DNA of 64,000 bases from Candidatus Doudnabacteria bacterium. GTDB lineage: Bacteria; Patescibacteriota; Doudnabacteria; UBA920. The notes beneath the pieces are model-generated. The model was not told the origin of the DNA. It worked only from the letters and a program-made list of their open reading frames with translations, and ran no database searches. The DNA lies in the NCBI GenBank assembly GCA_963837465.1, contig CAWINB010000001.1:139915-203914 (forward strand). Direction: 5' to 3'. Below, piece after piece: positions 36,910-60,575 of this stretch (position 1 is its first letter; the number at the start of each line of letters is the position of its first letter). Position numbers and translations under genes: made by a program.

Positions 36910-36955
36910 TTTTTTTCAAATTTAATTTTAAAATTTTTACTCATTTAAAACAAAT

Positions 36956-38114: not shown

Positions 38115-38224
38115 TGTTTTAAAGTTAGTTGTTTAAGAAAGATTTTTGTTTTGGTATTAGTTTAAATTGTGTATCATTCTCCTTTCCTTTGGCTTAATTA
38201 TCATGGCCAAATAGCACTGGCCGA

Positions 38225-38320: not shown

Positions 38321-38379
38321 AGGGCAGATAAGGAAGCAAAGGAAAAGCTGTTCCCATTTAGTTTTATTTTTGATATATT

Positions 38380-39069: not shown

Positions 39070-39073
39070 TTTT

Positions 39074-39556
39074 CTACATCAGCCCTTTATCTCTAAAGCT
39101 GGCATAAAATTCAGCTGTTACAATCACGTGATCTAAAACTTCTATGCCAAGAAGTTTTCCGGCATCTTTCAGACGCTTGGTAACTGCGAGGTCTTCGTCA
39201 GATGGCTCCAGACTGCCGCTGGGATGGTTGTGAGCAACAATCACTGAGCAGCAGTTTTTTAATATAGCTGTCCTGAATGTTTCCCTTGGATGAATTAAGC
39301 TGGCGTTTAATGTGCCAATGCTTATTACTTCCTTACCTGTTATTTTGTTTTGAGTGTCAAGAAAAAAGACGCAAAAGTATTCTTTTTTAGCTTTTCTGAA
39401 ACTCTTGCATTTTTCAGCCACTTGAGCTGGGCTGTAAACACCTTCTGGCATAGGCTTAATTTGCAAGTTTTCGTTAACATAATTTTTGGCTTTTTCGTTA
39501 GCCTCGGATTCGTTCTCCGCGGTAAACTGATAATTGATGTTAATTTGGTATTCCAT
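39074..39556 (-). CDS. RadC-like JAB/MPN-domain protein
   Basis: JAMM motif HNHPSGSLEPSDED, conserved Ser and Asp; 160 aa. Confidence 0.85.
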   Translation of the reverse strand: MEYQININYQFTAENESEANEKAKNYVNENLQIKPMPEGVYSPAQVAEKCKSFRKAKKEYFCVFFLDTQNKITGKEVISIGTLNASLIHPRETFRTAILKNCCSVIVAHNHPSGSLEPSDEDLAVTKRLKDAGKLLGIEVLDHVIVTAEFYASFRDKGLM

Positions 39557-39602
39557 AAAACTCCTTTTTGTTTACTTGTTATGGAGCAAGCAAACCGACC
39601 GC

Positions 39603-39698
39603 AGGTTTTTGGTGTCAACGGGACTAAAACCGATTTTATGGCTTACGGCAGATAAAGAGGTTTTACCCTTGCACACCCAAAAAACGGCCGGTATAATC
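39603..39698. repeat. Promoter-bearing ~96 bp repeat, copy 2 (TTGCAC-17-TATAAT), followed ~70 nt later by a terminator
   Basis: As copy 1; near-consensus sigma70 spacing. Confidence 0.5.
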
Positions 39699-39767
39699 TA
39701 AAACCCACAAGGAAACAAAAAGTTTTTGGTTTAAATTGGCGCGCCTAATGCTTTATCATTGAAATAG

Positions 39768-39799
39768 AAAAAACCATCCAGCAAATTGGATGGTTTTTT
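39768..39799. terminator. Bidirectional rho-independent terminator (aaaaaaccatccagcaaattggatggtttttt)
   Basis: Perfect 8 bp stem with A- and T-tracts on both sides; lies 3' of the giant minus-strand gene. Confidence 0.7.
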
Positions 39800-39835
39800 C
39801 TTACGCGCTCGAGCGAGGACGTTTTTGTAGTTCTT

Positions 39836-45229: not shown

Positions 45230-45315
45230 CGTAAAAAAATAAAAAGCCCGTCAAAAACGGAGCTTAATTAGAAATATTAAGTTTGTATAATCGCAAAACT
45301 GGCGAGCGTGTTTTA

Positions 45316-45337
45316 CTCTCTCTCTCTCTCTCTCTCT
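45316..45337. repeat. (CT)11 dinucleotide microsatellite in the 5' region of the giant surface-protein gene
   Basis: ctctctctctctctctctctct read directly, ~90 nt upstream of the start at 45229 (minus strand). Confidence 0.9.
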
Positions 45338-45364
45338 GCTAGCGCGTTTAAGATTTTGGACATT

Positions 45365-45667
45365 TTAGTTTTTTTCTGGTAATTTTTGTAAGGCTCGGGC
45401 TTTAATCTCTTCTAGGGTGTCGGCCGGTACTGACTTGCCGAGAATCCTTTCAGCCAGTTCCAGCATTTTATTTAAGCTTGGTTGACTTTTAAATTTATCC
45501 GCTATGATTTCCTGAGCACCTTCTTGGGCAGGAGTTTTATCCTCAACAGTTATCCCGGATAAGTGAAGCATTGAGACATAGGCGGATAAAAGTCTGGCAC
45601 ATTCTTCCAGATAAGCCGGGCTGTCTTCGGGCTTAGGGACCAATTCTAGTCTATTAGGATAATCCAT
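45365..45667 (-). CDS. Hypothetical protein (100 aa)
   Basis: No recognised domain. Confidence 0.4.
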   Translation of the reverse strand: MDYPNRLELVPKPEDSPAYLEECARLLSAYVSMLHLSGITVEDKTPAQEGAQEIIADKFKSQPSLNKMLELAERILGKSVPADTLEEIKARALQKLPEKN

Positions 45668-45831
45668 AATTACTACAGCTCTTTATACAAATATTATAGT
45701 ATATTTTACGATTTAAAGCCAGGATTGACTAAGTATTAGATTTGCTAGACATTTTGGGCCTTGTTTATTGGTCAGTTTTCCCGTATTTTTCTATGTTTTT
45801 TGCTTTTCTCCACCACCCCCACCCCCCCTGT

Positions 45832-46189
45832 TTTTGCACCCTGTTTTGTTTCTGTTTTTGGTTAGTTTTTAGTTTGGTATTTTAGTATATTTTTAGAGTA
45901 TATAGATAGTAGTATTTTAAGTATTTTAGTAGTTAGTATTTCTTTCCATTATTTTTCTTTGTCTGCCAGTGGAAATCGTGGTGATAGTCAAGGTTTGTGG
46001 TTTAAGAAAAGGTAATGGAATTAGGGTGTTTAGGAACTTTACTAGTTGAACCCGGATTCAACTAGCTGTTCAACTAGTTTGTACCCCCATTTTAAATCAA
46101 AAAACAGCCCTAAGCAAGAGCTGTTTTAGGGTAGCCAAGGTCAGCTGTTTTGGGTATAATAGGTTTGTAAAATATCGAATAAGGGTACC
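45832..46189. repeat. IR-b, copy B (inverted); overlaps the last 30 codons of the second recombinase
   Basis: Reverse complement of 33706–34061. Confidence 0.85.
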
Positions 46190-47703
46190 ATCGGCGATTT
46201 TAGAGCGGGTTGCAATCAGATCGAAGGGAGAACTCGGCGTGATCTCCAGGAGTTTTCCGTTCAGTACCCGGTTCGAGGTCAGAGAATCTACCATTTCGCG
46301 TTTTTCCGGCATGATGCCGACTTTGTACGCTGAATACGCGGTGTTCGCGCGTTCGAGAATTTCTAGCAGCTCATCGGCGACATTGCGGTTGCCGCTTTCC
46401 CAGCCAGAGAGTGTTTCCGACGTTTCCAGGCGCTCCGTGAGGAGCGCCGTTTTTCGTTGCTCGAACAGATCCTTTTCGACCAGCCGGTCGATGTAGGCAT
46501 CGGTGAGGCGGTTCAGCCGGTCGTCAATCTGGCCGAGCTTCAGCTTGAGGGCGGCGATGGCATCCTCGGTTTGCTTGTGACTGTCAGCTTTCAACCGGCG
46601 GAGTTCCTGCCAGCAGTATTGCTGCTCATCGGGAAGCAGCCGTAGTTGAAGGAGGGTTTCGAGAAATGAATTCTCGGCAACCTCTTCCCGGATCGCTGTT
46701 GTGGGACACTCGCGAGTTTGGCAGCGGTAGTAGACGAACCCCTTGTGAGTTTCGCCGATCAGGGTATGGCCGCAACCTTTGCAACTCAGCCTGCGGCGAA
46801 ACAGAAAATCATGGCGGTTGGTCCGCGTGTTGGTTTTTCCGTGGAGCACATCCTGGACGCGCTGAAAGAGCGCCTTGGAGATTAGAGGCTGGTGAGCTCC
46901 GAGGAAGGACTGACCGGAAACCTTGATGTGGATGAGGCCCATGTAGAAAGTATTGTTCAGCAATTTGGTCAGGCCGTTCATGGTGACCTGCTTGCCACTG
47001 CGCCCGCGCAAGCCGATGCGTTCGGCTTCGTGAAGTAGATCGTGAAAATTGGCCGTGCCGGTGGAATACTTTTCAAACAGATGGCGCACCAGGGGCGCAG
47101 TCTTGGGGTCTGGCTCCTTAGGTTTGCCGCTGCTGATGTTCCGATACCCCAGCGGGGCTGGCATGGGCAATATGCCTTGCTTGAGCCGTCCATAGAATCC
47201 CTTCTTGGTTTCTTCTTTGAGGTTGCGGATGAAATCGGATGCCACAACCGCTTGGATGTCCGCCGAGAGTCGTCCGCCGCGAGAATTGAGGTCCAGACCT
47301 TCGTTGGCGAAGTGGACTTCGACGCCACGGTCGATGATTTCGCCGAGGTCAGCCCAATCCTTGAGGTTGCGGGCGGAGCGGTCGATCTTGTGAATGACCA
47401 CACCGCGAACCGTGCCAGATCTCAGCCGCCTGATCATCTGGGTGAACACCGGGTGTCGGACGGCAAGAGGAAGCCATCACAGTCCCAGCAATCCGGCGTA
47501 GTCGCTCCGGGTGGCAACACGTACGGGGAAGTATCGAAAATAGACCGCTCCCTCTCATGCTTCGGGCCGTAAACGACCAAGTGCTCTGCGGTCTGATTTG
47601 TGCACTGGCCCCAGCCGCGTCCGCGGAGAATACGGAATGGCGGACGAATCAGGTCTCCATAATCCAGATCGAACAACAGCATGTCCTCCGCTCGGCACTT
47701 CAT
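46097..47703 (-). pseudogene. Second large serine recombinase with a disrupted N-terminal catalytic region
   Basis: The 450-aa ORF (46097–47449) starts inside the resolvase domain (GVVIHKIDRSARNL) and keeps the recombinase, zinc-ribbon (C..C...C...C) and coiled-coil parts. The upstream catalytic segment is scattered across three frames (...VRVATRSDYAGLLGL* ; ...DCDGFLLPSDTRCSPR*). Confidence 0.55.
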
Positions 47704-47754
47704 GCTTCGCTCTCAGATCACCGATCATATTGCTACGGACGAGTCGTCGCGTGG

Positions 47755-48471
47755 CTAAGGTTGCCACCGCCAGTTGGACCGGTATACATCAACGACGCCA
47801 AATTCTTTACCTGGGCTCCAACTACGTGACTCCCACATGAGCTGGCGAGCGCTACCGCCAAATTTACTACTGTCCAACATCACGTCGAATACTGCCTTGG
47901 TAATGTATGTAGAGAAGCCGACCTCCCGGATCGCGCTGAGCTTCGCCGCAATGTTCGGGGCTCGGCCTACCCACACCAGATCATTATTATTGCGAATTCC
48001 GCTCCGAACTACCATTATTTTGCTCGTGTCTATGCCAACGGTTTGACTCAATGGCAGGCCAGAGGGAAACGACCCCTTATAGAACGCATTAAATTCCGGG
48101 GTCAAAATTTGATTAAAAAAATAATTGATCTTGAGGCCCGCTTCGACCGCGTTCGTATTTTTCGCGCCCTCGATAAAGACGCCCATAACCCGGTCACCGT
48201 CAAAGCTTCGAATCTCACCCCCCAGCGCACGAATAATTCTCGTAGTGCCCATTAGATACGCCTTGAACACTTCAGCCGCGACCGACTGGTTAGCAATGGC
48301 CAGCCGAGTGGAGTCGTGCAGATCAGCATAAACGAAGGTAGCATCCAGGTTGACGCCCTCGTTGCCAAGGGCGAGGTCTTCGGTCTCAGGAACCACCGTC
48401 CCGTCCCGGCGTGTCCAGGCATCATGGACGACTTTGGCGGTTTCATTCTTAAGATCGTCGAGAAGAGTCAT
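47755..48471 (-). CDS. Class III nucleotidyl cyclase (CHD) domain protein, candidate Pycsar PycC-like cyclase
   Basis: Motifs ATFVYADLHDST and GDRVMGVF typical of the adenylyl/guanylyl cyclase catalytic domain; ~238 aa from the internal Met; one-nucleotide gap to the upstream TM gene. Confidence 0.55.
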   Translation of the reverse strand: MTLLDDLKNETAKVVHDAWTRRDGTVVPETEDLALGNEGVNLDATFVYADLHDSTRLAIANQSVAAEVFKAYLMGTTRIIRALGGEIRSFDGDRVMGVFIEGAKNTNAVEAGLKINYFFNQILTPEFNAFYKGSFPSGLPLSQTVGIDTSKIMVVRSGIRNNNDLVWVGRAPNIAAKLSAIREVGFSTYITKAVFDVMLDSSKFGGSARQLMWESRSWSPGKEFGVVDVYRSNWRWQP

Positions 48472-48472
48472 A

Positions 48473-48988
48473 TTAGTGAAATAGGGTTGAACGGGTTGGA
48501 GCTGTATACGCCGCAAATAACGCGAGCGCGGCAAGCCATGGAAGGAGAGCCAGCGCGAGAAACGTGAAGGCCGCTTTTAGCGCATCAAACTTTGCTGTCA
48601 GTATTTCCGAATTCCGCCACACCTGTGCCAAGAGATCGTTAACGTGCCCGTCTTCATTCTGCTGCTTGAATTGTTCGATAAAGTGGTGCTCCGTACGACC
48701 TGCTATCTGTCGAAAATAAACCAAGGACGAATTGCCTCCCTTAAGACTGGGGAATGCGCCACGATACAAAAACACAATGCTCACGCCCAAGAGAACCACA
48801 CAGATACCGGCGGACGTTGACATCGGCCAGGTTAACGCTTTGAGTGGTGGTGCGTCGGTAGCCAACACGGCTAACATTCCCGTATCTACCGCGAGTATCA
48901 CAGAAAGCTTTGAATCTACACGCGGGAAAAAGCTCAATACTCGATCGAGTTGATCTTTGCTCGCAGCGTATATAGTTTCAGTCTTCAT
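48473..48988 (-). CDS. Small transmembrane protein (2 to 3 TM), candidate cyclic-nucleotide-activated effector
   Basis: 171 aa; hydrophobic helices at ~30–75 and 140–165; translationally coupled to the cyclase. Confidence 0.45.
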   Translation of the reverse strand: MKTETIYAASKDQLDRVLSFFPRVDSKLSVILAVDTGMLAVLATDAPPLKALTWPMSTSAGICVVLLGVSIVFLYRGAFPSLKGGNSSLVYFRQIAGRTEHHFIEQFKQQNEDGHVNDLLAQVWRNSEILTAKFDALKAAFTFLALALLPWLAALALFAAYTAPTRSTLFH

Positions 48989-49153
48989 ATAGGCTTGGGG
49001 CGCAGCCTAGCAAATGCGTCTGCGCAGTAAATATGTTAAATTGCGCTCAGACAAAAGATATTATTAGAATCATAACTCTCGAATTCCGAGGCGTCAAGAA
49101 CTCAAGGCCGCATATTTGAAAGGCGAACTCGCTCGAAGTCCCGCTGGGTTCAC

Positions 49154-49477
49154 TCATGTCCGAGGAATAAACACGCCGAAAATCTTTACGATGTCCGAAC
49201 GTTCAAGCGGCTTGTCGGTCAAGTTGAACACATGCATGATGGTCGACCAGTGACACGCGAGGTTGTCCGCGAGCAACTGGGCTTGAGTGGCGAATGGCTC
49301 AAAGGGCACGCTGCGACGACTCAGAGCCGAGACACGCGTTTCAGCCAAGTGCCACTGGCCATATAGATCCTCGGGAGGACGCACGAGGACCAGATTCCAG
49401 CCTTCCCGATCCCGCGCGTTTTCGTTGATCTCAATATAACCACCATGTGCGACATGACGCCGCTCCAAAGTTGTCAT
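49154..49477 (-). CDS. Hypothetical protein (107 aa), operon gene 3
   Basis: Start overlaps the stop of the upstream gene. Confidence 0.4.
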   Translation of the reverse strand: MTTLERRHVAHGGYIEINENARDREGWNLVLVRPPEDLYGQWHLAETRVSALSRRSVPFEPFATQAQLLADNLACHWSTIMHVFNLTDKPLERSDIVKIFGVFIPRT

Positions 49478-49893
49478 CCTGCCAGGAACAATAGGATTTG
49501 CAAACAGCTCGCCACGATGAAAGAACCGGACACGTAAGGCCCGCCCACCAAAGCGGTATTTTTTCCGTCCGCAGCGGTAGCTGTGACGATCTTGGTTTCC
49601 GCGAGATGCCTATTGATCTCCTCGACGATCTCGTCAACCATCGCAATCAACTCCTCTTCTTTGTATCGATTCCTAGCAGCCGTGTCCCTTTCGGACTTCG
49701 CAATCCGCTGCTGCTCAAGTGTCGCCGCTTCGACCGCGTCGTGGTGTTGGCGCATCCTGGCGGCTAGCGCACCGATGGCGGATTCCCTTGGGGCCGGAGC
49801 AGTCTCCAGGCATCCAGAACCTCCCGCGCTGTTTGGTGACGGGCACGCGGATCCTTGGTCAAGAGCCTCTTGCCCAACTTTCCGGTTAAACAT
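49474..49893 (-). CDS. Hypothetical protein (139 aa), operon gene 2
   Basis: Overlaps the downstream gene by 4 nt (translational coupling). Confidence 0.4.
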   Translation of the reverse strand: MFNRKVGQEALDQGSACPSPNSAGGSGCLETAPAPRESAIGALAARMRQHHDAVEAATLEQQRIAKSERDTAARNRYKEEELIAMVDEIVEEINRHLAETKIVTATAADGKNTALVGGPYVSGSFIVASCLQILLFLAG

Positions 49894-49941
49894 TCACCAA
49901 TCATAAGATTTTTCTAAAAGATAGCAGCACAAGGCCCGACG

Positions 49942-51015
49942 TCAATCCCCCCTTTCGGCGCCGCCATCGAAACAAACACTGCCGTTCGAAGCCAGGGTAT
50001 CTCTAAAGTATGTTGCCAGATCGGCATTCCACACGAAGAAAGCCTGTGCTATAAGGCTGAAGGCGTCGCGATCAATCGGCTCGTCGATCCTGAAGATTTT
50101 CATCCGTACTCCGGTTTTCCCGAGTTTTCTGAGATGATCTTTCTGCCGTTCTTCAAATTGCTCGCCGTTGTAAATCCTCAGCGCCCCGTCGAAATGCGTA
50201 ATGGATTGGCTGCCCGGATCGTAAATCGCGTGAAGGTAACGGGCACCGGCGAATGGGATACGATCCCTGGGTGGAAGCTCCTCACAGACGAAATGGATTC
50301 CATCGCCACGTGGGCTCCAGCAGAATTCGGTAACTTGACTCCTGTCCCACGGCTTATCGGCCCGCATTTGCCCGAAGTGCTGTTCTCTCAATCGACCTAT
50401 GTCGTTCCAGGTCAGCGGCGCGGCATACACAATCATCTTGTACATGGTCTGCGGGAAAGAATCGCACGGACCCCAAAGAAATGGGTCGAGCCGGACGCTG
50501 ACGGAATTGGCGACACCCTGCTCATAAAACGACCGTAGTAGCCAATAAGTTGAATTGGGAGATTCGGTAGTTGTACAGACCGTGAAGTCGAACCCGTTGG
50601 CCTCAAGGGTTGAATTGTTGTAACTAAACTCCGCCAGTCTGACCATACCTTCACCATCCACGGTGACGCCGCGCAGACAATCGGCGGTGTAAGGTAGTGT
50701 CTGCGCGGAAGAGAAGGTTTCCGCTAGGATCTCCAATCGGCGGCGCGCCGCTTCATTGGTGAGGAGCGCATCTGCGACCCAGATCCGTGCAAGGCGTTCA
50801 TTCTTTCCGTGAAGTGCAAGGAAGGTCGGGTCCTGGAAGGCGGCCTCGACCGCCTTCGTCGGCAAACTCGAAAGTAACCGCGACAGGTCGGGATACAGGG
50901 ACCACGTCGACTCATTTGAGTTTTTAAGCAATTTGTCGAACGGGGCGAGCGGATCGGAAGCAAAGTCGCGCACGAGATCTTCCGGAAGCTTCACCCGTAT
51001 CCCATTGAACTGCAT
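49942..51015 (-). CDS. Hypothetical protein (357 aa), first gene of an unknown three-gene operon
   Basis: High GC; no recognised motif. Confidence 0.4.
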   Translation of the reverse strand: MQFNGIRVKLPEDLVRDFASDPLAPFDKLLKNSNESTWSLYPDLSRLLSSLPTKAVEAAFQDPTFLALHGKNERLARIWVADALLTNEAARRRLEILAETFSSAQTLPYTADCLRGVTVDGEGMVRLAEFSYNNSTLEANGFDFTVCTTTESPNSTYWLLRSFYEQGVANSVSVRLDPFLWGPCDSFPQTMYKMIVYAAPLTWNDIGRLREQHFGQMRADKPWDRSQVTEFCWSPRGDGIHFVCEELPPRDRIPFAGARYLHAIYDPGSQSITHFDGALRIYNGEQFEERQKDHLRKLGKTGVRMKIFRIDEPIDRDAFSLIAQAFFVWNADLATYFRDTLASNGSVCFDGGAERGD

Positions 51016-51199
51016 AGTCTTCTTGCCTTTCTAGTTCCAGCATATCCTGGACGCGTCCCGCTGTCCAGAAGAGCTCTAAACGGCAGTTCAACATCGCGTT
51101 TGTCGATACCTCCATCGAACACGCCCGTTCATTTGACAAGACTTCTAGGGCGGACCATTATATAAGTAGAATTAGAATATCTATTAACGTCAGCGTTTT

Positions 51200-51649
51200 A
51201 TGGTCGCTCTCGAATTTACATTAGGACACGTACACCTCAAGGTGAAAGACGTTGAAAGGGCAACTGCCTTCTATACAAATGTTTTCGGGCTTAAGGTTGC
51301 CGAGCGGGTCGGCAACTATGTATTCCTCTCGTTTGGCCAGAGGTATCATCACGACTTGGCCATACACGAAGTTCCGGCGGACGCGGCAGTGCCCGGCCTT
51401 AAAGATGTAGGCCTTTATCATTTTGCCCTTGAAGTTGCCGACATTCGGCAACTCGCATTGTTGTACCGCAAGCTAAAGCAATTAAATGTGGCCGTCAAGC
51501 CGGTTGATCACGGAATCAGCAAGGTGATATATTTCAGCGACCCCGACGGCAATGGCATAGAGGTCTACGTTGACACACGAAGTGAAACCGGACAGCAGGA
51601 ATGGCAAGGAAAATCCACGCCGCTAAACCTTGAGGATGTCATGGTGTGA
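51200..51649 (+). CDS. VOC (glyoxalase / bleomycin-resistance / dioxygenase) superfamily protein
   Basis: HVHLKVKDVERATAFYTNVFGL...HHDLA...HFALEV pattern. Confidence 0.7.
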   Translation: MVALEFTLGHVHLKVKDVERATAFYTNVFGLKVAERVGNYVFLSFGQRYHHDLAIHEVPADAAVPGLKDVGLYHFALEVADIRQLALLYRKLKQLNVAVKPVDHGISKVIYFSDPDGNGIEVYVDTRSETGQQEWQGKSTPLNLEDVMV

Positions 51650-52428
51650 GAAGAAAAACTGTAATAAACCTCGCCACCGGCCTTGGCTTTTTTGGGTTTT
51701 CTACCCTATCTGGCTGGGCGCTTCACTCGCCCGTCGCGGCACTCGTAACGGGTTTCGGCATTGTAATCATCCGTCTTCTAGTAGACATCAGGCTGAATCT
51801 ACATACAAAGATTCCGGTGGAGGTATCTTTCCTCAATAGCTACACTAAGCTGCGAGAGAGCCAATGTGAACTCTTTCGGGAGGCGGCAGCCGTAAAGCTA
51901 CGGTCTGTGACTGCCTACTTCGACAGTTTGGCAGGTGGCCATTTGCCGGTTGACAATCAGAATGAGGTCTTCGATTTACTTGAGCTTTTGTTCTGTGACA
52001 TTGATTTTGTAAGACAAATTCGTACGACTAGCTTTGGGGAAATTGAAGAGTGGGGAAATTGGTGGGGCAAGCGATATTTGGGTATCCACAAAGAGGCGAA
52101 GAAGAGAGGAGTGAAGGTACATCGCGTTTTCATCCTTCAGTCCGACGACGACGTTCAGGCGGGAGCCGATATCATGCGCGCCAACGCTGCTGAGGGCGTG
52201 GCGGTAAAGTATGTATCGCGGCGTGTGATTTCTCTGGGAGATTTCAATACCGGCAACAACTGTATGCTGTTCTATGACCGAAACGGGGTTCCAGTATATG
52301 CTCTCACGGCCGTGCACGACGAAAAAGGCGGATTTTTGGCAGCGATAATCTATAACGACGCAGCCCACATCAAACCCGTAGTTGATGCATACAGCCATAT
52401 CGATGCCCTTGCCGTCGAGTTTAGATAA
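51646..52428 (+). CDS. Hypothetical membrane protein (260 aa); start overlaps the VOC gene stop
   Basis: N-terminal TM segments; unknown C-terminal domain. Confidence 0.4.
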   Translation: MRRKTVINLATGLGFFGFSTLSGWALHSPVAALVTGFGIVIIRLLVDIRLNLHTKIPVEVSFLNSYTKLRESQCELFREAAAVKLRSVTAYFDSLAGGHLPVDNQNEVFDLLELLFCDIDFVRQIRTTSFGEIEEWGNWWGKRYLGIHKEAKKRGVKVHRVFILQSDDDVQAGADIMRANAAEGVAVKYVSRRVISLGDFNTGNNCMLFYDRNGVPVYALTAVHDEKGGFLAAIIYNDAAHIKPVVDAYSHIDALAVEFR

Positions 52429-52479
52429 CGGTGGACTTGGGACAAGCTTGTCCACCGTCTCGCAGAAAAAATGGACTTC

Positions 52480-52700
52480 CCGCCAAGTTTTCCCTCCTAT
52501 ACAAACCTTTAAGTTCTGCTATTCTATCTTTGCCACGATCAAAGCCGCCGAGCGGGGTGCTGGCCGCGCGGCAGGCTTGATCGATGAGCAAACTCATGCC
52601 GCAATCTTTTCTTTCGACTCTTGTTTGCGTTGGAGCAAATCCATTATCGCGGGCAGAAGGCGCTTCCACGTTCGATGTATGTCCCGTCTCGGGCTACCAA
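52480..52700. repeat. R-family ~230 bp repeat, copy 1 (core ctattctayctttgccacgatcaaagc...gcttccacgttcgatgtatgtcccgtctcgggctacca)
   Basis: Copies at ~55195–55430, ~59085–59345 and a truncated one at ~60105–60235. Confidence 0.75.
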
Positions 52701-52874
52701 AATGATTCAGCAGCGTAAAGCTGCTGTTTTTATTTGCTAAAACGATTCAAGGAAAACGAACCATGCGGAGGGAGAAATTCCGGTCCGCATATTTAAAAGG
52801 CAAAATCGTTCGATTCCCCAATGGGGTCGAAATTAATTCCAGTAAGTAAGAACACAATACGGGCGACATCTTAG

Positions 52875-54290
52875 TTACTTAGCGACCGCCATCAGATTGC
52901 TTGGCGGGGGGAGTGTGGAGGGTGACGTAGAACCTTTTACCATCGCATCTGTGATAATCAAAGAACTACATGTAGACCCTGGGCACGTTAGGAGCGACGC
53001 AGGCACCGGAAACGCATCGGTAAATACGTAGCCCAGTGAAGTAAATGCCGTAGCAGTAGCGAAACCCGCAATTTGACCGTCCGACACGACATAATAGGTG
53101 CTATTGGTTGCGCATCCGTGCCCGCTCGAATCGAGAGTGCAAAGAATCGAACCTTCGCGATATGGCAACGTATAGTTCCGGAACGTTGGATCTTCCAGCA
53201 ATGTGGCCGTCGACTGTTGTTGTATATCACTCCAGCGAAATCCCACGCCGTCGAATATCAATTGTGACGTGATACCTCGCTTATAATGCTGATCGGTTAC
53301 CTCGTAGATGGTACCGCCATCATTCACCAAGAACGCTGCCGGCGGCGGCCCTAACAGACTTCCTTGGGGAAGCGCCTGAATCTCTTGAAGCCCCACACTT
53401 ATGACTTTGCCGAAATCAAAGCCGTACGCGTAGAACACGGCGGGCGACGGTATCCCGCGAAGTTTACCGGCCTGTATGAGGTACACCGTGCCATTGTAAG
53501 AAACCAGCGAACCGTCGGGGTGCCAGATTACGTTTGGCGCGGCCGTTCTCGCCGGTGCCCAAAGAGTGGTGCTTCGGACTGTCCTCGGGTCCAGATACCT
53601 CCCTTGCCACCCATAGGGGTCAACCGGAACTCCGTTATAGCGTACCTCGAAGTGGAGGTGCGGGCAGGGAGAGTCCGTGGTACAGACTCCAACGCTACCG
53701 CTAACCCCGATCATATCTCCTGCGCTCACTGCCCGTCCTTCGACGGTGTTTGGATCAACCCAACTGGAGAGGTGCAAATAATATGTTTTATAGCAATTGC
53801 CATGGTCAATGTAAAGTGCATGGCAGCACTTTTCACCGGTATCCACGTGCAGTGTGCCGCTGGCGGCGGCATAGACTGGTATTTCGCCACTAGGGTCCTG
53901 ATCCGTAGTTTTGTAATCGATTCCGGGGTGCCCATCATAGTTGAGAAATGTTGGCGTGCCCGCGCCGATATACTGTCCGTTTATCACGAAAGGGATTCCA
54001 GGCATGTTCTGAAAGGAGAAGAACGTTTGGCCGTTGATCGTCGTAGCATACTCGGGATTTAGATTGGCCAACTCGCCGGTGAATCCAATCACCACGTTGT
54101 CAGATGTGTAGGAGTTGGTCATGGAGTGATCCATGACCGAGTTGATGCTCGCGGAATAGGCGGTTCTGTTTGGCAAGGGGAACTTTGACAAGTAGAACGC
54201 TGAAGAGGGTTGCGAGGGGCAGGTAGACTGAGCAAGGAGCAGTACGTCTGCGTGCAGTGCGCAAATCGCGAAACAAAGCCAAAAACGCAT
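52875..54290 (-). CDS. Secreted M23 (LytM) family metallopeptidase
   Basis: Signal peptide (MRFWLCFAICALHA); HPGIDY...D and HLHFEV zinc-binding motifs. Confidence 0.8.
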   Translation of the reverse strand: MRFWLCFAICALHADVLLLAQSTCPSQPSSAFYLSKFPLPNRTAYSASINSVMDHSMTNSYTSDNVVIGFTGELANLNPEYATTINGQTFFSFQNMPGIPFVINGQYIGAGTPTFLNYDGHPGIDYKTTDQDPSGEIPVYAAASGTLHVDTGEKCCHALYIDHGNCYKTYYLHLSSWVDPNTVEGRAVSAGDMIGVSGSVGVCTTDSPCPHLHFEVRYNGVPVDPYGWQGRYLDPRTVRSTTLWAPARTAAPNVIWHPDGSLVSYNGTVYLIQAGKLRGIPSPAVFYAYGFDFGKVISVGLQEIQALPQGSLLGPPPAAFLVNDGGTIYEVTDQHYKRGITSQLIFDGVGFRWSDIQQQSTATLLEDPTFRNYTLPYREGSILCTLDSSGHGCATNSTYYVVSDGQIAGFATATAFTSLGYVFTDAFPVPASLLTCPGSTCSSLIITDAMVKGSTSPSTLPPPSNLMAVAK

Positions 54291-54408
54291 GGTAACTCCA
54301 GTTGCCACCAGCGTACTACAGGCCTCGCCGAAAATCAAAGGGGCTCCCCGCTCCGCCCTACCCATCAGACCAGCAAGCTTGACCGGCTCTCCGACGTTTG
54401 TAATAATG

Positions 54409-55070
54409 CAATGGCTTCAATAATTAATCTGATTGTTCTAATGAAGAGGTACTTGTTTATCTTTGTAATGAGCTGTCTTTCTGCGGGTTGCAGTCGGGTA
54501 AACGTGGCGACAAATGAACCGGCGGTTCAGCCCGACGTTCGACTGAACCCGCCCCGGAACGCTTCTAAATCGCCGGTCAGCTTGATGGGTGTAACAGCCA
54601 ATGGCACCACTACGCAGGACTCTCAACCCGGCGATTGGACTACATACACGGACACTGCTTATGGCTTTAGCCTGAACATTCCAGCCGGATACGTTTATGC
54701 CACGTCGACAGCGGAGCGCGGATGGTCGCCTGTGCTAATTGTCTACGACCCAGAGAATTTACCCATAGCCAGTGAGCCAGCTGTTACTGTTTATGTTTCA
54801 ACAATCACTAGCAAGGAGCAGGAATCGCCTTCTTATCTGCTTCAGCAAGAAGGCATACCCCCGGCAGCGGCTACAGTCACCCCAACAAGGTTTGCGGGAT
54901 GCCTAGCCACCCAAATTATTATCGAGAACACGGACGGAGGATACCCGGTTGAGGACCAGATGTTCGTAGCCCACGACGGTCTTGAATATTCAATCAGATA
55001 TACCGCGCGCGACAATACGACATTCGCAAGGATTGCTTCGTCCTTTGTATTCCTCGCAACTGGTTGTTGA
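54409..55070 (+). CDS. Putative lipoprotein (lipobox LSAGC)
   Basis: Signal peptide plus lipobox; the 3' 240 nt is duplicated at 59751–59987. Confidence 0.5.
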
Positions 55071-55282
55071 CTCTTAGCTTGATACTCCGCTTCACCTTCA
55101 AAGGATGATGGCGTTTTCGTGGGGTTGAGTCCGATTAGCCCAGAGCGAAAAGAATTGGCAAGAGCTCAAGATATCCACCGAGCGGGTCAATTCTTGGAAG
55201 TTGAGCCAATGTTTCCCTCCTTTGCAAGCGTCTGAGTTCTTGCTATTCTACTTTTGCCACGATCAAAGCAGCCGCGCAGGGT
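54835..55282. repeat. ~448 bp direct repeat, copy D1 (3' end of the lipoprotein gene plus downstream R repeat)
   Basis: Near-identical to 59751–60199 apart from a diverged ~70 nt patch. Confidence 0.8.
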
Positions 55283-55430
55283 GCTGGCCGCACGGCATGC
55301 TTGATCGAGGAGAACCATTTAGGCCGCAATCTTTTCTGTAGACTCTTGTTTGCGTTGGAGCAAGCTCAGCATCCTGGGCAGAAGACGCTTCCACGTTCGA
55401 TGTATGTCCCGTCTCGGGCTACCAGGAATC
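55195..55430. repeat. R-family repeat, copy 2
   Basis: See copy 1. Confidence 0.7.
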
Positions 55431-55650
55431 CCATTCAACTTTTCCCTCCCTAAAAGAAGAATTCACCCGCAGAAATGCGGGTTTTTCATTGGCGCAGATT
55501 CAGCCCTTGGCCAGAATTGTCCACAGGCCATTGGGGAATCGAACTGACAGGCGGTTTCCCGCATGGGAAAGCGTAGTAGTGGTGCAGATTTGACACCCAC
55601 ACAAAAGGTGTGTAAACTACAAATATAAGATCATTAACCTAGAAACTTCC

Positions 55651-55920
55651 ATGAGCAAACGTATTAACATCATGCTGCCGGAAAGAACCCTGGCCGTGCT
55701 GGACCGGGTGGCTTCCAAAGGCAACCGCAGCCAGTTTGTGTCTAGGGCCGTGCTCCACTACGTGGAAATCCAGGGCAAACAAAGCCTGCGCCAGCAGCTT
55801 AAAGCCGGCTATATGGCCAATGCCGATGAGAACCTAAAGATTGCCGCGGAGTGGTTTCCCCTTGAGGAACAAGCATGGCAAAAGTCCCGCACCAGCCAAA
55901 AGGCCAAAAGCAAAAAGTAG
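55651..55920 (+). CDS. Ribbon-helix-helix (CopG-like) antitoxin
   Basis: KRINIMLPERTLAVLDRVASKGNRSQFVSRAV is the RHH fold signature. Confidence 0.7.
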   Translation: MSKRINIMLPERTLAVLDRVASKGNRSQFVSRAVLHYVEIQGKQSLRQQLKAGYMANADENLKIAAEWFPLEEQAWQKSRTSQKAKSKK

Positions 55921-56273
55921 AAGGCATCCGAAGGGGTGAAGTCTACCTCTGCTCTTTTGACCCGACGGTCGGCCACGAAATCAAGAAGACCCGGCCCGCC
56001 CTGGTCGTCCAAAACGATGTCGGCAATCGCTATGGTCCCCTGACGATTGTCGCGGCAATCACTTCCAGCGTTTCCCCTGTCCCCTATCCGGTCGAGGTTG
56101 TCGTTGAACCGACCGCCGCCAACGGCCTGGATGTCCGCTCTTCCGTTCGCCTGGACCAGATCCGCACCATAGACCGGCAGCGCCTGATTCGTCATTTGGG
56201 CGTAGTGGATTCCGCCACCATGGCCAGGGTCGATGAGGCCATCAAGATTAGCTTGGGGCTGATTAGAGTTTAG
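55875..56273 (+). CDS. MazF/PemK-family endoribonuclease toxin
   Basis: RGEVYLCSFDPTVGHEIKKTRPALVVQNDVGN is the PemK/MazF signature; overlaps the antitoxin gene. Confidence 0.8.
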   Translation: MAKVPHQPKGQKQKVEGIRRGEVYLCSFDPTVGHEIKKTRPALVVQNDVGNRYGPLTIVAAITSSVSPVPYPVEVVVEPTAANGLDVRSSVRLDQIRTIDRQRLIRHLGVVDSATMARVDEAIKISLGLIRV

Positions 56274-56278
56274 TATCT

Positions 56279-56995
56279 ATGTCGATTCACTCATTGGTCC
56301 CGGACGCGCCGACGCTCCTTGCCCTTGAACCGGAAGAACTCGCAGGCGTAGTGCTGCAATATCTAAACTCGCTACCGCCCGACGCCTCTGAGTTAAACCG
56401 ACACAACTTCAGTTTGCCCCATACGGTTCAGGAGTATCCCAGGGAATATCAGCGACAGTTGAGGAGCGCACTTATGGAAGCCTGGGTATGGCTGGAGCGG
56501 GAAGGACTTATCGCTCCGAACCCAGAACAAGGCACTGATTGGCGGTTTATTACAAGGCGCGGCCGACTACTGAAGACGGCGCCCGAGGTCGCGGCATACC
56601 GGAAGGCCGAGATGCTGCCAAAGGCGCTCTTGCATCCTACTATCGCGACTAAGGTTCATGCGGCCTTTCTGCGCGGCGAATATGACACTGCCGTATTTCA
56701 GGCTTTTCGAGAAGTCGAAATCGCCGTACGCACCGCCGGCAAGTTTAAGGCCACGGACCTTGGAGTGGATCTAATGGATAAGGCCTTCAACAAGACCAGC
56801 GGCCCGTTAACGGATTTGGCCGTCCCCGACAGTGAACGAGAAGCGACGCGGCTCATGTTTCGAGGCATAATCGGTCGTTACAAAAACCCTCATAGCCACC
56901 GGGCCGTGGCAATCATTGATCCGTCCGAAGCCATCGAACTCTTGATGCTGGCCACGCATTTACTCCGCATCATTCAGGCCGCCGCCGTGGCTTAG
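56279..56995 (+). CDS. Hypothetical protein with an Abi-associated (TIGR02391-like) C-terminal domain
   Basis: C-terminal FRGIIGRYKNPHSHR resembles the conserved motif of the TIGR02391 abortive-infection-associated family; tentative. Confidence 0.35.
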   Translation: MSIHSLVPDAPTLLALEPEELAGVVLQYLNSLPPDASELNRHNFSLPHTVQEYPREYQRQLRSALMEAWVWLEREGLIAPNPEQGTDWRFITRRGRLLKTAPEVAAYRKAEMLPKALLHPTIATKVHAAFLRGEYDTAVFQAFREVEIAVRTAGKFKATDLGVDLMDKAFNKTSGPLTDLAVPDSEREATRLMFRGIIGRYKNPHSHRAVAIIDPSEAIELLMLATHLLRIIQAAAVA

Positions 56996-57009
56996 CAGGA
57001 ATTAACCTT

Positions 57010-57879
57010 ATGATTGACGATCCAGGCGAACAATTCAAAGAGCAGCTCGACAATGCAATGAGTCACGGTAATGGTCCGAAAGCCGCCCGTTTTGCGTTGG
57101 CCTGCCTAGGCGTGATTCCCGGCGTCGGCGGGGCAATCGCCGGCATTGCTGGCTCGTGGTCAGAACGAGAGCAGGCCGAGTTTAACCGTATCTTTTCCGC
57201 TTGGCTCAAGCTCCAAGAGGATGAAATTCGGGAGATCGGCATGACCATATTCGAAGTCATGAACCGTCTCGACCAAAATGATGAAGAAATCCGAAAGCGC
57301 ATTGAAAGCCCGGAATACCTCAAGCTGGTTAAAAAATGCTTCCGGGATTGGTCGGCAGCCGAAAGTGAAGAGAAGCGCGCCCTAATCAGAAATCTTCTCA
57401 GTAATGCGGCAGCGACCAAGCTCTGCTCCGATGACGTCATTCGAATGTTCATCGAGTGGATCGATAAATATTCTGAACCGCATTTTGCGGTCATCAGGCA
57501 CATTTTTAAGACACCCGGCTCGACGCGCCGTGAAGTTTGGGCTGAAATCCACGGTGCCGACGTTCGCGAGGATTCTGCTGAGGCCGACCTCTTCAAGCTC
57601 TTGGTTCACGATTTGAGTACCGGCCATGTGATTCGTCAGCACCGGGAGAAGGATTACTATGGCAACTTCGTTAAAAGAGAACCACAGAGGAAGGGCCGCG
57701 GGGAGGCAAGCCGCGTCATGACATCTGCATTCGATGACGACAAACAATACGAACTCACGGAACTCGGCAAGCAGTTCGTACACTACACGATGAATGAAAT
57801 CGTGCCGAAGATTGCCGCTCCGAGCGCAAATCCAGTGGCGAGCGAGCAAGGCCGCGCCGCCGCACCAAGCCAGTCATAG
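57010..57879 (+). CDS. Hypothetical protein (289 aa)
   Basis: No recognised domain; adjacent to the Abi-like gene. Confidence 0.4.
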   Translation: MIDDPGEQFKEQLDNAMSHGNGPKAARFALACLGVIPGVGGAIAGIAGSWSEREQAEFNRIFSAWLKLQEDEIREIGMTIFEVMNRLDQNDEEIRKRIESPEYLKLVKKCFRDWSAAESEEKRALIRNLLSNAAATKLCSDDVIRMFIEWIDKYSEPHFAVIRHIFKTPGSTRREVWAEIHGADVREDSAEADLFKLLVHDLSTGHVIRQHREKDYYGNFVKREPQRKGRGEASRVMTSAFDDDKQYELTELGKQFVHYTMNEIVPKIAAPSANPVASEQGRAAAPSQS

Positions 57880-57907
57880 AATATTAAACTTCCTACACAG
57901 AGGCAAT

Positions 57908-58837
57908 ATGAATTCATCATTGAAACAACAACCTCTAATAGCGGAGGTCCTTCCTGGCCTCGCCGTGCTGGCGGTTCTCGCTGTATCATATTGCGTCACC
58001 CACCCTCAGCAGCTGAGCGAGCTCTTGCACCTGCCGAGCGCTGGCGTGATCGTGACCGGGATCGGTGTTGGAGGATTCTTTTTATCCTGGATCATCGGGA
58101 CCTTTTTGGACGCGGTTAGAAATGCTTGCGAAGCACTTTTGGACATGCGCTGGCCCATCGACTGGAGTTTCCTGTTTACGGCCTCAGTAGATGAAATCAA
58201 GAAACTCGACGATTCTTTTCTTGCATACTATTTTCTTGACGGGAACTATGTAGCCGGATTTGCCATTCTCCTCATCCTCAAGGGCCTTGGCCTGGTTCAC
58301 ATCCCGCTACTGCCACTCGGTATTGTTTTCCTCATCTTTCTAGCCAATGCCACATTCCTTAGAATCGAAATCAAAAATCTGATAGACCGCCAAAACGAGC
58401 AACGCGGCAATGTAGGGCCTCATTGGCCCCACATTGGGGTCTATACCCGGTTGGCACCGTCGCAGATACACCAGGGTGGAATCGGGGTGATGGCCATTCG
58501 GGACATCAAAGAAGGCACCTCTGTATTTGAACCCGATGACGACGATATGGTCTGGGTTGAGTCTGGGGTCGTAGGCGCATTGCCGGCACAGTTGCGGAAA
58601 CTCTATGACGACTTCGCGGTTATCCACGACCACCGTTACGGATGTCCCCGCAGTTTCAACAAGCTTACAATCGCCTGGTACTTAAATTCATCGAAGAATC
58701 CCAATGTGGCAAGCGATGCGGATTATAAGTTTTATGCAGTTCGTGATATTGCTCAGGGTGAAGAATTGACCGCAGACTACGATACTTATAGCGATGCACC
58801 GGAATCACTTCCAAAAACGCCCGCCAGTGTTGAGTGA
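57908..58837 (+). CDS. Membrane-anchored SET-domain protein
   Basis: 4 to 5 N-terminal TM helices, then SET motifs (GIGVMAIRDIKEGTSVFEP; YLNSSKNPN; EELTADYD). Confidence 0.6.
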   Translation: MNSSLKQQPLIAEVLPGLAVLAVLAVSYCVTHPQQLSELLHLPSAGVIVTGIGVGGFFLSWIIGTFLDAVRNACEALLDMRWPIDWSFLFTASVDEIKKLDDSFLAYYFLDGNYVAGFAILLILKGLGLVHIPLLPLGIVFLIFLANATFLRIEIKNLIDRQNEQRGNVGPHWPHIGVYTRLAPSQIHQGGIGVMAIRDIKEGTSVFEPDDDDMVWVESGVVGALPAQLRKLYDDFAVIHDHRYGCPRSFNKLTIAWYLNSSKNPNVASDADYKFYAVRDIAQGEELTADYDTYSDAPESLPKTPASVE

Positions 58838-59084
58838 GCCAAAAACCTGTAACCATAGGGGCTATTCCAGAATTTCGTCGTTTCGCTGGGATGCCGGCCA
58901 TTCCTTACCCTCTACCTTGAGCCGGTCGTAGATCCTAACGATCACGGCCAGGTACCGCCTGAGGTTGTCGCGGGCAATCCGCAGCTTGTCATCGGTCATG
59001 TGTGGGTAGAGTTTACGGATGTCGTCTAGATTGTCTTCTTCATATGGGACCATTCCGGGAGCCTACAGGAATGTCCCCCGTCTA

Positions 59085-59345
59085 GGCAAGATATCCACCG
59101 CATAAGCAAAGGTTACGGAACTTCCGCCAACTTTTCCCTGTTATTCAAAACCTTTGAGTACTGCTATTCTACTTCTGCCACGATCAAAGCCGCCATGCGG
59201 AAATGTTGTCGCACAGCGTGCTTGATCTAAGAAATAAAATCAGGCCGCAATCTCTTCTGTAGACTCTTGTTTGCGTTGAAGCAAGCTCAGCATCCTGGGC
59301 AGAAGACGCTTCCACGTTCGATGTATGTCCCGTCTCGGGCTACCA
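59085..59345. repeat. R-family repeat, copy 3
   Basis: See copy 1. Confidence 0.7.
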
Positions 59346-59525
59346 CGAGTTTCCGTTATCGAGGGATGTTGAAGCATCAAGCTGCCTAGAAAAGTTCTAG
59401 TCGTTGATGCGTCACAAAATCCAATCAATAGTGTAAGCTCGCAAAAACACGACCAACGTTGATCATGTTTTTGTTAAAATAATTACAAAATTTTAAAATT
59501 GTGGGTTTGACAAACAAGCCAGATT

Positions 59526-59987
59526 TTGGTAAACTATATATACAAAGTGCTATTTCGGCACTTTCTTTTTTTAAGAAACAAAATGCCTAACTCTTTATCA
59601 CAAGTCGCTGTAAAAGAGATTGTTCCTACAGGTCTAACCAAGCTCGACTATGGAACTTTTGACATATTGCTGGAAAAGTCCAATCCCTTTTCTGCCGAGA
59701 ACCCAGTTTTTGATTTAACGGGAATTACCAGGACCAGGAATCACCCTCATATCTGCTTCAGCAAGAAGGCATACCCCCGGAAGCGGCTACAGTCACCCCA
59801 ACAAGGTTTGCGGGATGCCCGGCCACCGAAATTATCGCCAAAAACACTGCCGGAAGGATACCCGGTTGAGGACCAGATGTTCGTAGCCCACGACGGTCTT
59901 GAATATTCAATCAGATATACCGCGCGCGACAATACGACATTCGCAAGGATTGCTTCGTCCTTTGTATTCCTCGCAACTGGTTGTTGA
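59526..59987 (+). pseudogene. Duplicated 3' fragment of the 54409–55070 lipoprotein gene fused to an unrelated 5' leader
   Basis: The last ~45 aa are identical to the lipoprotein (GYPVEDQMFVAHDGLEYSIRYTARDNTTFARIASSFVFLATGC); upstream reading is frame-shifted relative to D1. Confidence 0.5.
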
Positions 59988-60199
59988 CTCTTAGCTTGAT
60001 ACTCCGCTTCACCTTCAAAGGATGATGGCGTTTTCGTGGGGTTGAGTCCGATTAGCCCAGAGCGAAAAGAATTGGCAAGAGCTCAAGATATCCACCGAGC
60101 GGGTCAATTCTTGGAAGTTGAGCCAATGTTTCCCTCCTTTGCAAGCGTCTGAGTTCTTGCTATTCTACTTTTGCCACGATCAAAGCAGCCGCGCAGGGT
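59751..60199. repeat. ~448 bp direct repeat, copy D2 (includes the truncated R copy 4)
   Basis: See D1. Confidence 0.8.
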
Positions 60200-60236
60200 A
60201 CTCTGTGCGCGCGGCAAGCTTGATCGATGAGCAAAC

Positions 60237-60575
60237 TTGGGAGTGGCAAAATCTTTTATGAAAACTATTATAAAAACCGCCCTGTTTAATTCTCTCTCAA
60301 CGGCAGTTTATGTAGCGCTGGTAGGGTCGTTTTTTTACTTAGCCGGGCAAAAAAAATTCGGCGATGGACATACTGTGTTTATCCCTATTTTCCTTTTAAT
60401 GCTCTTGGTATTTTCCGTCGCGCTAACGGGAGCGTTAATTTTTGGCCGGCCCGTGCTTTGGTATTTGGAAGGCAAAAAGCAAGACGCTCTGTCGCTACTG
60501 GTTTATACCTTAGGAAGCTTTTTTATTATCACATTGCTCGCGTTCCTTGGTATGATAATCTTTATACACCCATAG
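60237..60575 (+). CDS. Small three-TM membrane protein
   Basis: 112 aa; host-like AT-rich composition. Confidence 0.45.
   Translation: MGVAKSFMKTIIKTALFNSLSTAVYVALVGSFFYLAGQKKFGDGHTVFIPIFLLMLLVFSVALTGALIFGRPVLWYLEGKKQDALSLLVYTLGSFFIITLLAFLGMIIFIHP

Follow-up and report, generated by a model that had tools for sequence, protein, structure and literature searches.

Genomic islands of Dehalococcoides are found in tandem at the tmRNA gene ssrA, downstream of a single tDNA, with repeats of the 3' end of this tDNA marking their borders (McMurdie et al. 2011; PMC3146451). Their recombinase, DsiB, is a serine recombinase of approximately 540 amino acids, which is encoded at the attL edge in outward-reading orientation and whose gene always overlaps the att site with its 3' end (PMC3146451). 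Fifteen of these islands do not carry the integration module, and it has been proposed that the integrase is complete perhaps only in the circular form or behind an adjacent island from which the 3' fragment is provided (PMC3146451). For tyrosine integrases, tandem accretion at tRNA genes and the resulting cis-mobilizable elements (CIMEs) are well documented in the ICESt1 family and others (PMC5704250). Here, we analysed a 64,000-nt stretch of a Candidatus Doudnabacteria contig (CAWINB010000001.1; 'the window', to whose full length all coordinates refer), in which a sequence of about 260 bp, termed R, recurs at the borders of gene modules. With a probability of roughly 0.78, R is the attachment-site-bearing end module of integrative elements that are stacked at a tRNA-Glu gene and driven by a large serine recombinase (LSR) of the family LSR1, i.e. 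the family whose gene ends in R.

The Dehalococcoides ssrA islands are the nearest published case and have the same architecture. Here, too, the recombinase gene overlaps attL with its 3' end and has its stop codon outside of the island, which applies to the LSR1 gene of the window (stop at 46097, junction at 46190), to the gene of a second and distant family, LSR2 (stop within the tRNA gene), and to locus L036 (L-numbers denote comparison loci and P-numbers protein homologues). However, the target is tRNA-Glu(CTC) and not tmRNA; the repeat of about 260 bp includes a conserved 35-codon tail, a stem-loop and a small open reading frame (ORF), whereas that of the DsiB islands has 20 bp with a divergent tail; an unrelated small ORF takes the place of the DsiA, RecF, ParB or Mom modules as a companion; and the hosts belong to different phyla, with two distant LSR clades being stacked at one site here. 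In CIMEs, as would be the case here, decayed elements retain their att sites without an integrase, and composites can move en bloc (PMC5704250). The layout, with a tRNA gene at one end, host synteny resuming at the other and att-bearing direct repeats delimiting the segments, is also that of CIME arrays, but the documented CIMEs depend on tyrosine integrases and repeats of the target-gene end, whereas the integrase here is of the serine type and the repeated site resides within its coding sequence. An attP site inside the int gene is also found in SSV1-type archaeal integrases, i.e. in tyrosine recombinases of archaeal viruses, where integration at a tRNA gene splits int to both ends of the provirus and removes a large part of the gene. 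In the system described here, in contrast, the exchange is limited to the last 35 codons and leaves the tRNA gene uninterrupted.

R had been noticed in an earlier reading of the window from its sequence alone (the sequence-only reading), as a recurrent element of about 230 bp present in four copies at module boundaries. A hidden Markov model (HMM) built from the copies matches all four, which are thus truly related and all on one strand, but only three of them are full-length with approximately 260 bp (R1, 52443-52699; R2, 55166-55424; R3, 59085-59345), whereas R4 (60083-60235) is partial and comprises the 5' 150 nt only. The 14-mer GCCACGATCAAAGC has exactly four matches in the window, or five if up to two mismatches are allowed (versus 0.56 expected by chance), and a 34-mer of the R 3' end occurs three times (versus 0 expected); no copies of R beyond R1-R4 were found in the window.

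R is not the stand-alone element it had been taken for, but the C-terminal coding end and 3' flank of a large serine recombinase gene. In several metagenome loci, it continues beyond ...GTTCGAT...GGGCTACCA into a conserved minus-strand coding region, with the respective ORF encoding 510 aa (in L013, L017, L018, L019, L022 and L026-L035) and its product showing the Pfam domains Resolvase (PF00239), Recombinase (PF07508) and Zn_ribbon_recom (PF13408) in the case of the L022 LSR and, with partial matches, of LSR1 in the window. On the minus strand, R is made up of the last 35 LSR1 codons (...DGSPRRDIHRTWKRLLP...QESxEKIAA and the stop codon), a stem-loop that directly adjoins the stop codon, a spacer of about 100 nt and then the small ORF. 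The native LSR1 tail thus has 35 residues, which include the conserved motif GSPRRDIHRTW, and the orphan tails of R1, R2 and R3 have remained in frame; that of R1 (52594-52698; 35 codons plus stop) is 71% identical to LSR residues 477-511. R1 as a whole (minus strand), as the HMM match and the junction show, also includes the stem-loop after the stop codon and the spacer, and ends in TACCA.

The secondary structure for which a check had been proposed exists as a stem-loop of 18 pairs with 90.6% of the cells paired, although covariation is not significant when compared to shuffled alignments (35 of 500). About nine G-U cells of the minus strand would be A-C mismatches on the plus strand, which fits a 3'-UTR hairpin of the recombinase mRNA. 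A scan of a genome collection by hairpin pattern gave 10 chance matches and one true relative, L009 in a Bryobacteraceae metagenome-assembled genome (MAG), and a metagenome scan yielded eight more loci; six loci of the latter scan (L014, L016, L020, L021, L023 and L024) represented one unrelated coding sequence. R therefore does have copies elsewhere, as the sequence-only reading had asked, and at the loci examined outside of the window these occur only beside LSR genes or homologues of the small ORF. Other interpretations of R were tried and rejected. For a tmRNA or another tRNA-like RNA gene, as suggested by ...GTTCGAT...GGGCTACCA, ARAGORN (which found no tmRNA) and Rfam were negative, the likeness being attP mimicry of the tRNA-Glu 3' end; a plus-strand small RNA with its own promoter (TTGCAA..TATTCT) and terminators was dropped given the minus-strand coding continuation; and the idea that small minus-strand ORFs of R following GGAGGG encode type I toxins was dismissed, because their frame is not conserved among the copies.

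The small ORF belongs to a family of 63-91 aa that always accompanies LSR1 and has the motif IR.LYP.M..EEL..A..NL.RYVAV.VRIYDRLK.EGK.WP. One copy overlaps the LSR start from directly upstream and a paralogue follows R, with copies located at 58862-59053 in the window (sORF3, minus strand), at 2315-2590 and 4313-4510 in L022 and at 9731-9985 in L036. It has no match in Pfam, PHROGs or PADLOC and is a candidate directionality or regulatory factor. At L026-L035 from a peat metagenome (e.g. L026, 1-11741), an intact LSR1-family gene and the small ORF are situated at the edge of a module resembling an actinomycete integrative and conjugative element (AICE), with a tyrosine integrase, Replic_Relax, a TrwB/FtsK-like ATPase and a D12 methyltransferase, and an extra partial R (5' 130 nt) is found about 190 nt beyond the full R.

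All 12 junctions that we tabulated from six sources, i.e. the window and unrelated contigs, break at the same point, immediately after TACCA. To the left of this point there is R, the genuine 3' end of tRNA-Glu(CTC) or the tail of the second LSR family, and to its right an LSR body, the tRNA trailer with a terminator, or cargo. In R1, R2, R3, L009, L015 and one L022 copy, the recombinase gene is cut sharply after TACCA with unrelated DNA beyond; conversely, the LSR1 body of the window starts at 46191, right after ...AAGGGTACCA, with AT-rich DNA on its left. Because all 12 junctions break here with exchangeable partners, attP is located inside the integrase gene and mimics the tRNA's 3' end, with the end of R, GTTCGAT..TCCCGTCTCGGGCTACCA, representing a diverged copy of the T-arm and acceptor end of tRNA-Glu. 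Our data establish what R is, that the breakpoint is common to the junctions, that a tRNA gene is the target and that the C-terminus of the integrase is split or swapped; that the LSR itself catalyses the joints is what we infer from this arrangement.

The swap of the C-terminus is evident in four LSR1 homologues (P0016, P0025, P0029 and P0032, with the first three being full length at 482-486 aa), which end in ...GSATGN(RT(P/L/R)I) in place of the native tail, a peptide corresponding to the antisense reading of the tRNA 3' end. At the locus of P0029 (L036, on a 505-kb scaffold), the end of tRNA-Glu(CTC), ...GTAGCGCTACCA, is fused to the LSR body, and the native tail recurs at a distance of 5.6 kb (...GTCCCGACTCGGGCTACCA), where it directly borders on a terminator hairpin, i.e. 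the tRNA trailer. L036 is thus a clean 5.6-kb element, in which tRNA-Glu(CTC) is followed by the LSR gene, the small ORF, three genes, the tail and the terminator, and the junction of tRNA and LSR body can be read as attL and that of tail and trailer as attR.

In the window, a tRNA-Glu(CTC) gene (31593-31667, plus strand; identified by ARAGORN and Rfam) is likewise the chromosomal target, with the LSR2 body being joined to its 3' end ...GTAGCGCTACCA. The LSR2 gene (31627-33153, minus strand) is intact and encodes a protein with Resolvase, Recombinase and Zn_ribbon_recom domains (Pfam) and 28% identity to LSR1. The last 13 codons of the LSR2 gene are the antisense of tRNA-Glu, such that the translation ends in ...SESLVL followed across the junction by VALRRIELRFSG and the stop codon. 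Searches for homologues gave more than 4,500 each at E 1e-30 for LSR1 and 1e-20 for LSR2, from which samples of 120 each were taken. tRNA-antisense C-termini were present in 4 of the 120 sampled LSR1 homologues and in 67 of the 120 sampled LSR2 homologues (GIEPTT and similar peptides), while 15 of the latter have a native tail of the pattern ..LV.(L/I)Y...RT(Y/H)F..N(S/P) before the stop codon. One LSR2 homologue carries the name Patescibacteria. Two distant LSR clades, LSR1 and LSR2, thus target tRNA genes, and the abundance of LSR2 homologues, most of which end in such peptides, suggests that serine integrases with tRNA genes as targets form a large clade.

The array in the window is much longer than 54835-60235, to which the sequence-only reading had confined the system, since it runs from the tRNA-Glu gene onwards and includes the integrase genes at 31627-33153 and 46097-47452. 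Its far end is marked by the first host gene, which encodes a 105-aa membrane protein (60258-60575, plus strand; homologues with 71-86% identity). In a small contig of a relative (L038), tRNA-Glu(CTC) is located about 700 nt upstream of this gene, with the order tRNA-Glu, a 173-aa gene and the 105-aa gene and with homology to the window resuming at 60248; in a more distant relative (L037), tRNA-Glu is found 5 kb upstream, with other genes and an insertion sequence in between. As the relatives have tRNA-Glu upstream of the 105-aa gene with other content in between, the interval 31668-60247 most likely represents inserted DNA. L038 and L037 show that the space between the two genes is variable, but their trailer does not match the sequence from 59346 onwards and the 173-aa gene is absent from the window. 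Within the array, the tRNA gene and the segments S1, S2, S3 and S4 all end in TACCA, with S3 and S4 having no recombinase gene. The location of R at module boundaries was thus borne out, in that these boundaries bear a recombination site. The GC content is 0.52-0.57 over 46.2-59.3 kb but falls to 0.37 in the DNA directly adjoining on either side, with the remainder of the window having about 0.44.

S1 (31668-46190), the LSR2 integrative element, is host-like in GC content (0.42-0.44), represents a second element at the same tRNA-Glu and encodes an FtsK/TraD/CedD-like ATPase of 930 aa (34117-36909) and a surface protein of 1797 aa (39836-45229). When read in the LSR2 frame, positions 46140-46190 give LV followed by PLFDILQTYYTQNS and a stop codon, which matches the native-tail pattern of the LSR2 family; because the DNA to the left of 46190 encodes such a native tail, 46190 is the attR of this element. 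The last kilobase of S1 before the tail contains a (CT)11 microsatellite (45317-45338) and AT-rich low-complexity sequence with tagtatttt-like words (45790-45960).

S2 (46191-52699) comprises the LSR1 body, a Pycsar system, three unknown genes, a glyoxalase gene, a DUF6879-like gene and R1. The LSR1 gene is a pseudogene (46097-47452, minus strand), the body of which (46191-47452) is 86% identical to residues 53-491 of the L022 LSR (tblastn). The first 55 or so codons, including that for the catalytic serine, are missing, with homology starting from 47452 and the resolvase domain covering profile positions 52-143 only, and the C-terminus is replaced, since at 46190/46191 the body passes into the LSR2 tail with the stop at 46097. 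Pycsar (47755-48988, minus strand) consists of PycC (47755-48534; PADLOC, 1.8e-82) and the PycTM effector with two transmembrane segments (48473-48988; 5e-54), and is a complete anti-phage system.

S3 (52700-55424) has no integrase and contains a trailer-like terminator region, an M23 peptidase gene (52875-54365, minus strand; Pfam), a lipoprotein gene (54210-55070, plus strand), which contains D1 (see below), and R2. Its beginning, the right flank of R1 (52700-52830), is homologous to the R flank in L009 and resembles the L036 tRNA trailer with its terminator. The stretch of about 125 nt common to 52700-52830 and L009 (7490-7611) can form a terminator-like hairpin with compensatory changes, and a second hairpin (ATGCGGA..TCCGCAT) and the T-loop-like GTTCGATTCC are also present, with no Rfam match for the region; it may be a tRNA trailer with an old att site or tRNA fragment.

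S4 (55425-59345), again without an integrase, carries the genes which the sequence-only reading had listed between the repeats, in agreement with the Pfam and PADLOC matches: a ribbon-helix-helix (RHH) gene (55651-55920, weak match), PemK/MazF (55875-56273, 2.6e-34), a Hypoth_Ymh/HEPN-like, i.e. Abi-like, gene (56279-56995, 2e-23), a gene for a 289-aa protein with no match in Pfam, PHROGs or PADLOC (57010-57879) and one for a membrane SET protein (57794-58837, 1.9e-08), followed by sORF3 and R3. S4 has also been assembled alone as a 3914-bp contig, which is broken inside R at both ends. The promoter region of RHH-MazF (55570-55650) includes TTGACA..ACACAC-N-GGTGTGTAAACT with a palindromic operator, and this promoter region is conserved in all homologous cassettes (L015, L022 and L025), including that of L025 which has no upstream R. 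L015 and L022 show an arrangement of two R-ended units, the first with RHH', MazF', a gene x, SET and the small ORF, the second with RHH, MazF and the small ORF, followed by the LSR gene, and L025 carries RHH-MazF without an R upstream. As the same cargo recurs in other combinations, modules have been reshuffled at R, though elsewhere too, as the case of L025 indicates.

S5 (59346-60237) begins with AT-rich, host-like DNA (59346-59729, GC 0.367), which is the probable right flank (B' side) of the insertion site of the composite island; positions 46175-46190 and 59346-59362 show an imperfect inverted symmetry by eye. It is followed by D2 and R4 (59730-60237), a GC-rich patch (0.514) of 508 bp in AT-rich DNA and a remnant of a second module consisting of a lipoprotein 3' end and R; R4 reaches only as far as the position corresponding to the LSR stop codon, i.e. 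the tail is absent. An ORF at 59583-59987 starts in the AT-rich DNA behind a good promoter (TTGACA..N17..TAAACT) and enters the lipoprotein-like D2 via two frameshifts that compensate each other when compared to the frame of the lipoprotein gene; possibly, this gene is chimeric or in decay. Elsewhere in the window, which also contains the housekeeping genes for DnaB, PyrG and iPGM, the ORF for release factor 2 (RF2; 15107-16321) matches the prfB model from residue 134 on, which suggests either the usual programmed frameshift or an N-terminal extension of the ORF call.

The direct repeat D1/D2, given as about 448 bp in the sequence-only reading, is real, with 95.2% identity over 502 nt between 54814-55312 and 59730-60231 (BLAST), approximately 345 identical nucleotides in the middle of the alignment and distinct flanks of either copy on both sides. 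In the repeat search of the window, its left part (54814-54938 versus 59730-59854) is 88% identical, whereas 300 nt of its right part (54938-55237 and 59855-60154) are identical. D1 (54814-55312) takes in the 3' end of the lipoprotein gene and its 3' flank together with the 5' part of R2, and is the partner of D2 and R4; both are diverged at their edges, with the left edges being 88% identical and the right ones differing in their hairpin loops. D1 and D2 did not arise by insertion of the toxin–antitoxin/Abi/SET segment, the real limits of which are the TACCA ends of R2 and R3 (55425-59345). Rather, they are the ends of two paralogous modules of a lipoprotein 3' end and R which share a 345-bp identical core and are not insertion-made repeats. 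Because this core sits between diverged sequences, gene conversion between D1 and D2 is the probable cause; the 345-nt core exceeds short-read length, and the pairing of the flanks across D1/D2 is that given by the assembly only. A role of D1/D2 as variable and template repeats of a diversity-generating retroelement was rejected, as the two copies do not differ specifically at adenines and a reverse transcriptase is absent.

These data would be accounted for by the following sequence of events. The unsplit LSR1 gene would carry attP within its own last 35 or so codons, and crossover within TACCA between attP (where R borders on the LSR body) and either the tRNA-Glu(CTC) 3' end or a site resembling it would leave the tRNA intact but fused to the integrase body, with a swapped integrase C-terminus, while the detached tail, i.e. 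R, would come to lie beside the tRNA trailer, at the opposite end of the element. Each integrated element would thereby leave a new tRNA-like site, such that further elements can stack by tandem accretion, and elements that lose their integrase would persist as att-flanked segments equivalent to CIMEs, to which S3 and S4 would correspond. The idea of a hotspot filled serially by site-specific recombination at a reusable site was thus right in spirit, with each newcomer regenerating the site. In the window, a resident LSR2 element would occupy tRNA-Glu, and an Acidobacteria-like composite of S2, S3 and S4 (46191-59345), accreted in an earlier host, would have inserted exactly at the attR of the LSR2 element: excised via its outer R (R3), it would have entered as one piece to yield the LSR2 tail joined to LSR1 on one side and R3 joined to host-like DNA on the other. 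As the flank of R1 matches that in the Bryobacteraceae MAG and resembles the L036 trailer, the end of R1 would be an attR junction from this earlier, probably acidobacterial host, which suggests that S2-S4 had already been an accreted composite before arrival; the order of events and the transfer en bloc are what we infer. D2 and R4 would be a remnant of an older related module, the central 345 bp of which would have been homogenized with S3 by gene conversion. Because its LSR1 is 5'-truncated, the composite is probably immobile on its own.

An alternative that we consider unlikely is an integron-like platform, with the LSR as a cassette integrase, the site in its own 3' end corresponding to attI, R corresponding to attC and units of cargo, small ORF and R being the mobile entities. 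Indeed, the integrase-less units are small and end in a full R with an intact tail (1.4 kb for L022 RHH-MazF and 3.9 kb for S4), L022 has two of them in an array-like manner directly downstream of an intact LSR gene, the same cargo (RHH-MazF, SET) is found in differing combinations in the window, L015, L022 and L025, and the orphan tails are in frame as though re-used. Serial capture of modules beside a recombinase gene, a recombination site at the module end and frequent toxin–antitoxin cargo are also integron features. However, as L036 and the tRNA-fused homologues show, it is complete elements that primarily integrate, in the ordinary manner and at a tRNA gene. Moreover, the junction has no attC-type folded site but LSR-coding sequence, with the hairpin being about 115 nt away, a tyrosine recombinase of the IntI type was not found among the island genes scanned against Pfam, and the modules are multigenic, with genes in both orientations, and have their own promoters and terminators. 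RHH-MazF in L025 has no R upstream, and a circular cassette junction was not seen. Integrase loss plus accretion, as documented for CIMEs, explains the same pattern (PMC5704250).

That R is a gene for a structured non-coding RNA or a repeat similar to miniature inverted-repeat transposable elements, which spreads by itself and lands between modules, is hardly credible: the conserved stem-loop with its 18 pairs and several one-sided changes to G-U, as well as promoter- and terminator-like plus-strand sequences around R (by eye), would fit, but R has no match in Rfam even at E<=10 and no terminal inverted repeats were detected in the repeat search of the window. Furthermore, 105 nt of R are in-frame C-terminal LSR codons with the stem-loop immediately after their stop codon, and the restriction of R to the vicinity of LSR genes or small-ORF homologues as well as the lack of significant covariation do not support such an origin. 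An assembly artefact, with Acidobacteria-like DNA mis-joined into a low-GC contig or D1/D2 arising from one repeat threaded twice, is very improbable as well, even though the GC shift is sharp, the identical D1/D2 core is longer than typical reads and k-mers and an independent assembly broke inside R on either side of S4. The junctions at the GC shift (46190 and 59345) have only TACCA in common with their partners, which is far too short for a mis-join, and they fall exactly on the recombination point of unrelated contigs, while the diverged flanks of D1 and D2 mean that two copies exist whatever their linkage.

Several points also weigh against stacked LSR1 elements as the explanation. The evidence for recombination is that of assembled junctions. 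The left ends of S3 and S4, i.e. the sequences following R1 and R2, are not integrase bodies, such that stacking of complete elements needs extra deletions, unless integrase-less segments move as units. An origin of the S4 left end by precise deletion of an LSR gene and small ORF was considered but rejected, as the common CCAAC/TTTTCCCT motif is oppositely oriented upstream of the LSR-proximal small ORF in L018. R4 ends at 60237, away from TACCA, which calls for a separate deletion. Recombination of attP with attL or attR is not what LSRs normally perform, and stacking would thus require that the tRNA-like arm lets attR serve as a secondary attB. No obvious common motif was seen in the right-arm sequences of the different junctions. 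Finally, the identity of the 345-bp core might in principle have led a short-read assembler to a wrong order of S4 and S5.

A more speculative extension, which we regard as possible but doubtful, is that serine integrases of a large, essentially undescribed clade with tRNA targets, which includes LSR1 in Acidobacteria and LSR2 in Patescibacteria-like bacteria, use their own C-terminus as an integration-state switch. The native 35-residue tail would be present only with an unsplit attP, i.e. in the circle or behind the R of another element, whereas upon integration the tRNA-antisense peptide would replace it and alter the activity or directionality of the enzyme, and orphan R tails would be kept in frame through re-attachment during stacking. 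If so, this site design would let elements cross phyla and build defence islands cassette by cassette.

Overall, a puzzling repeat is explained as a recombination footprint, with the affected region growing from 5 kb to about 29 kb. The class of mechanism is established; what deserves attention are the integrase clades, the targeting of tRNA genes and the tail-swap design. According to the 2015 Islander database paper, no serine integrases with tRNA genes as targets were known (PMC4383910), and in a literature search of incomplete coverage we found no description of tRNA-targeting LSRs of this design. Island finders that assume tyrosine integrases at tDNAs would overlook such elements, which may supply genome engineering with integrases that have conserved and ubiquitous natural landing sites and a state-dependent C-terminus. 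An Acidobacteria-like defence island has apparently been transferred here into a host of low GC content with a small genome, and our findings are relevant to the spread of defence cargo such as Pycsar, MazEF and HEPN-like systems among very different bacteria, including Patescibacteria-like hosts with small genomes.

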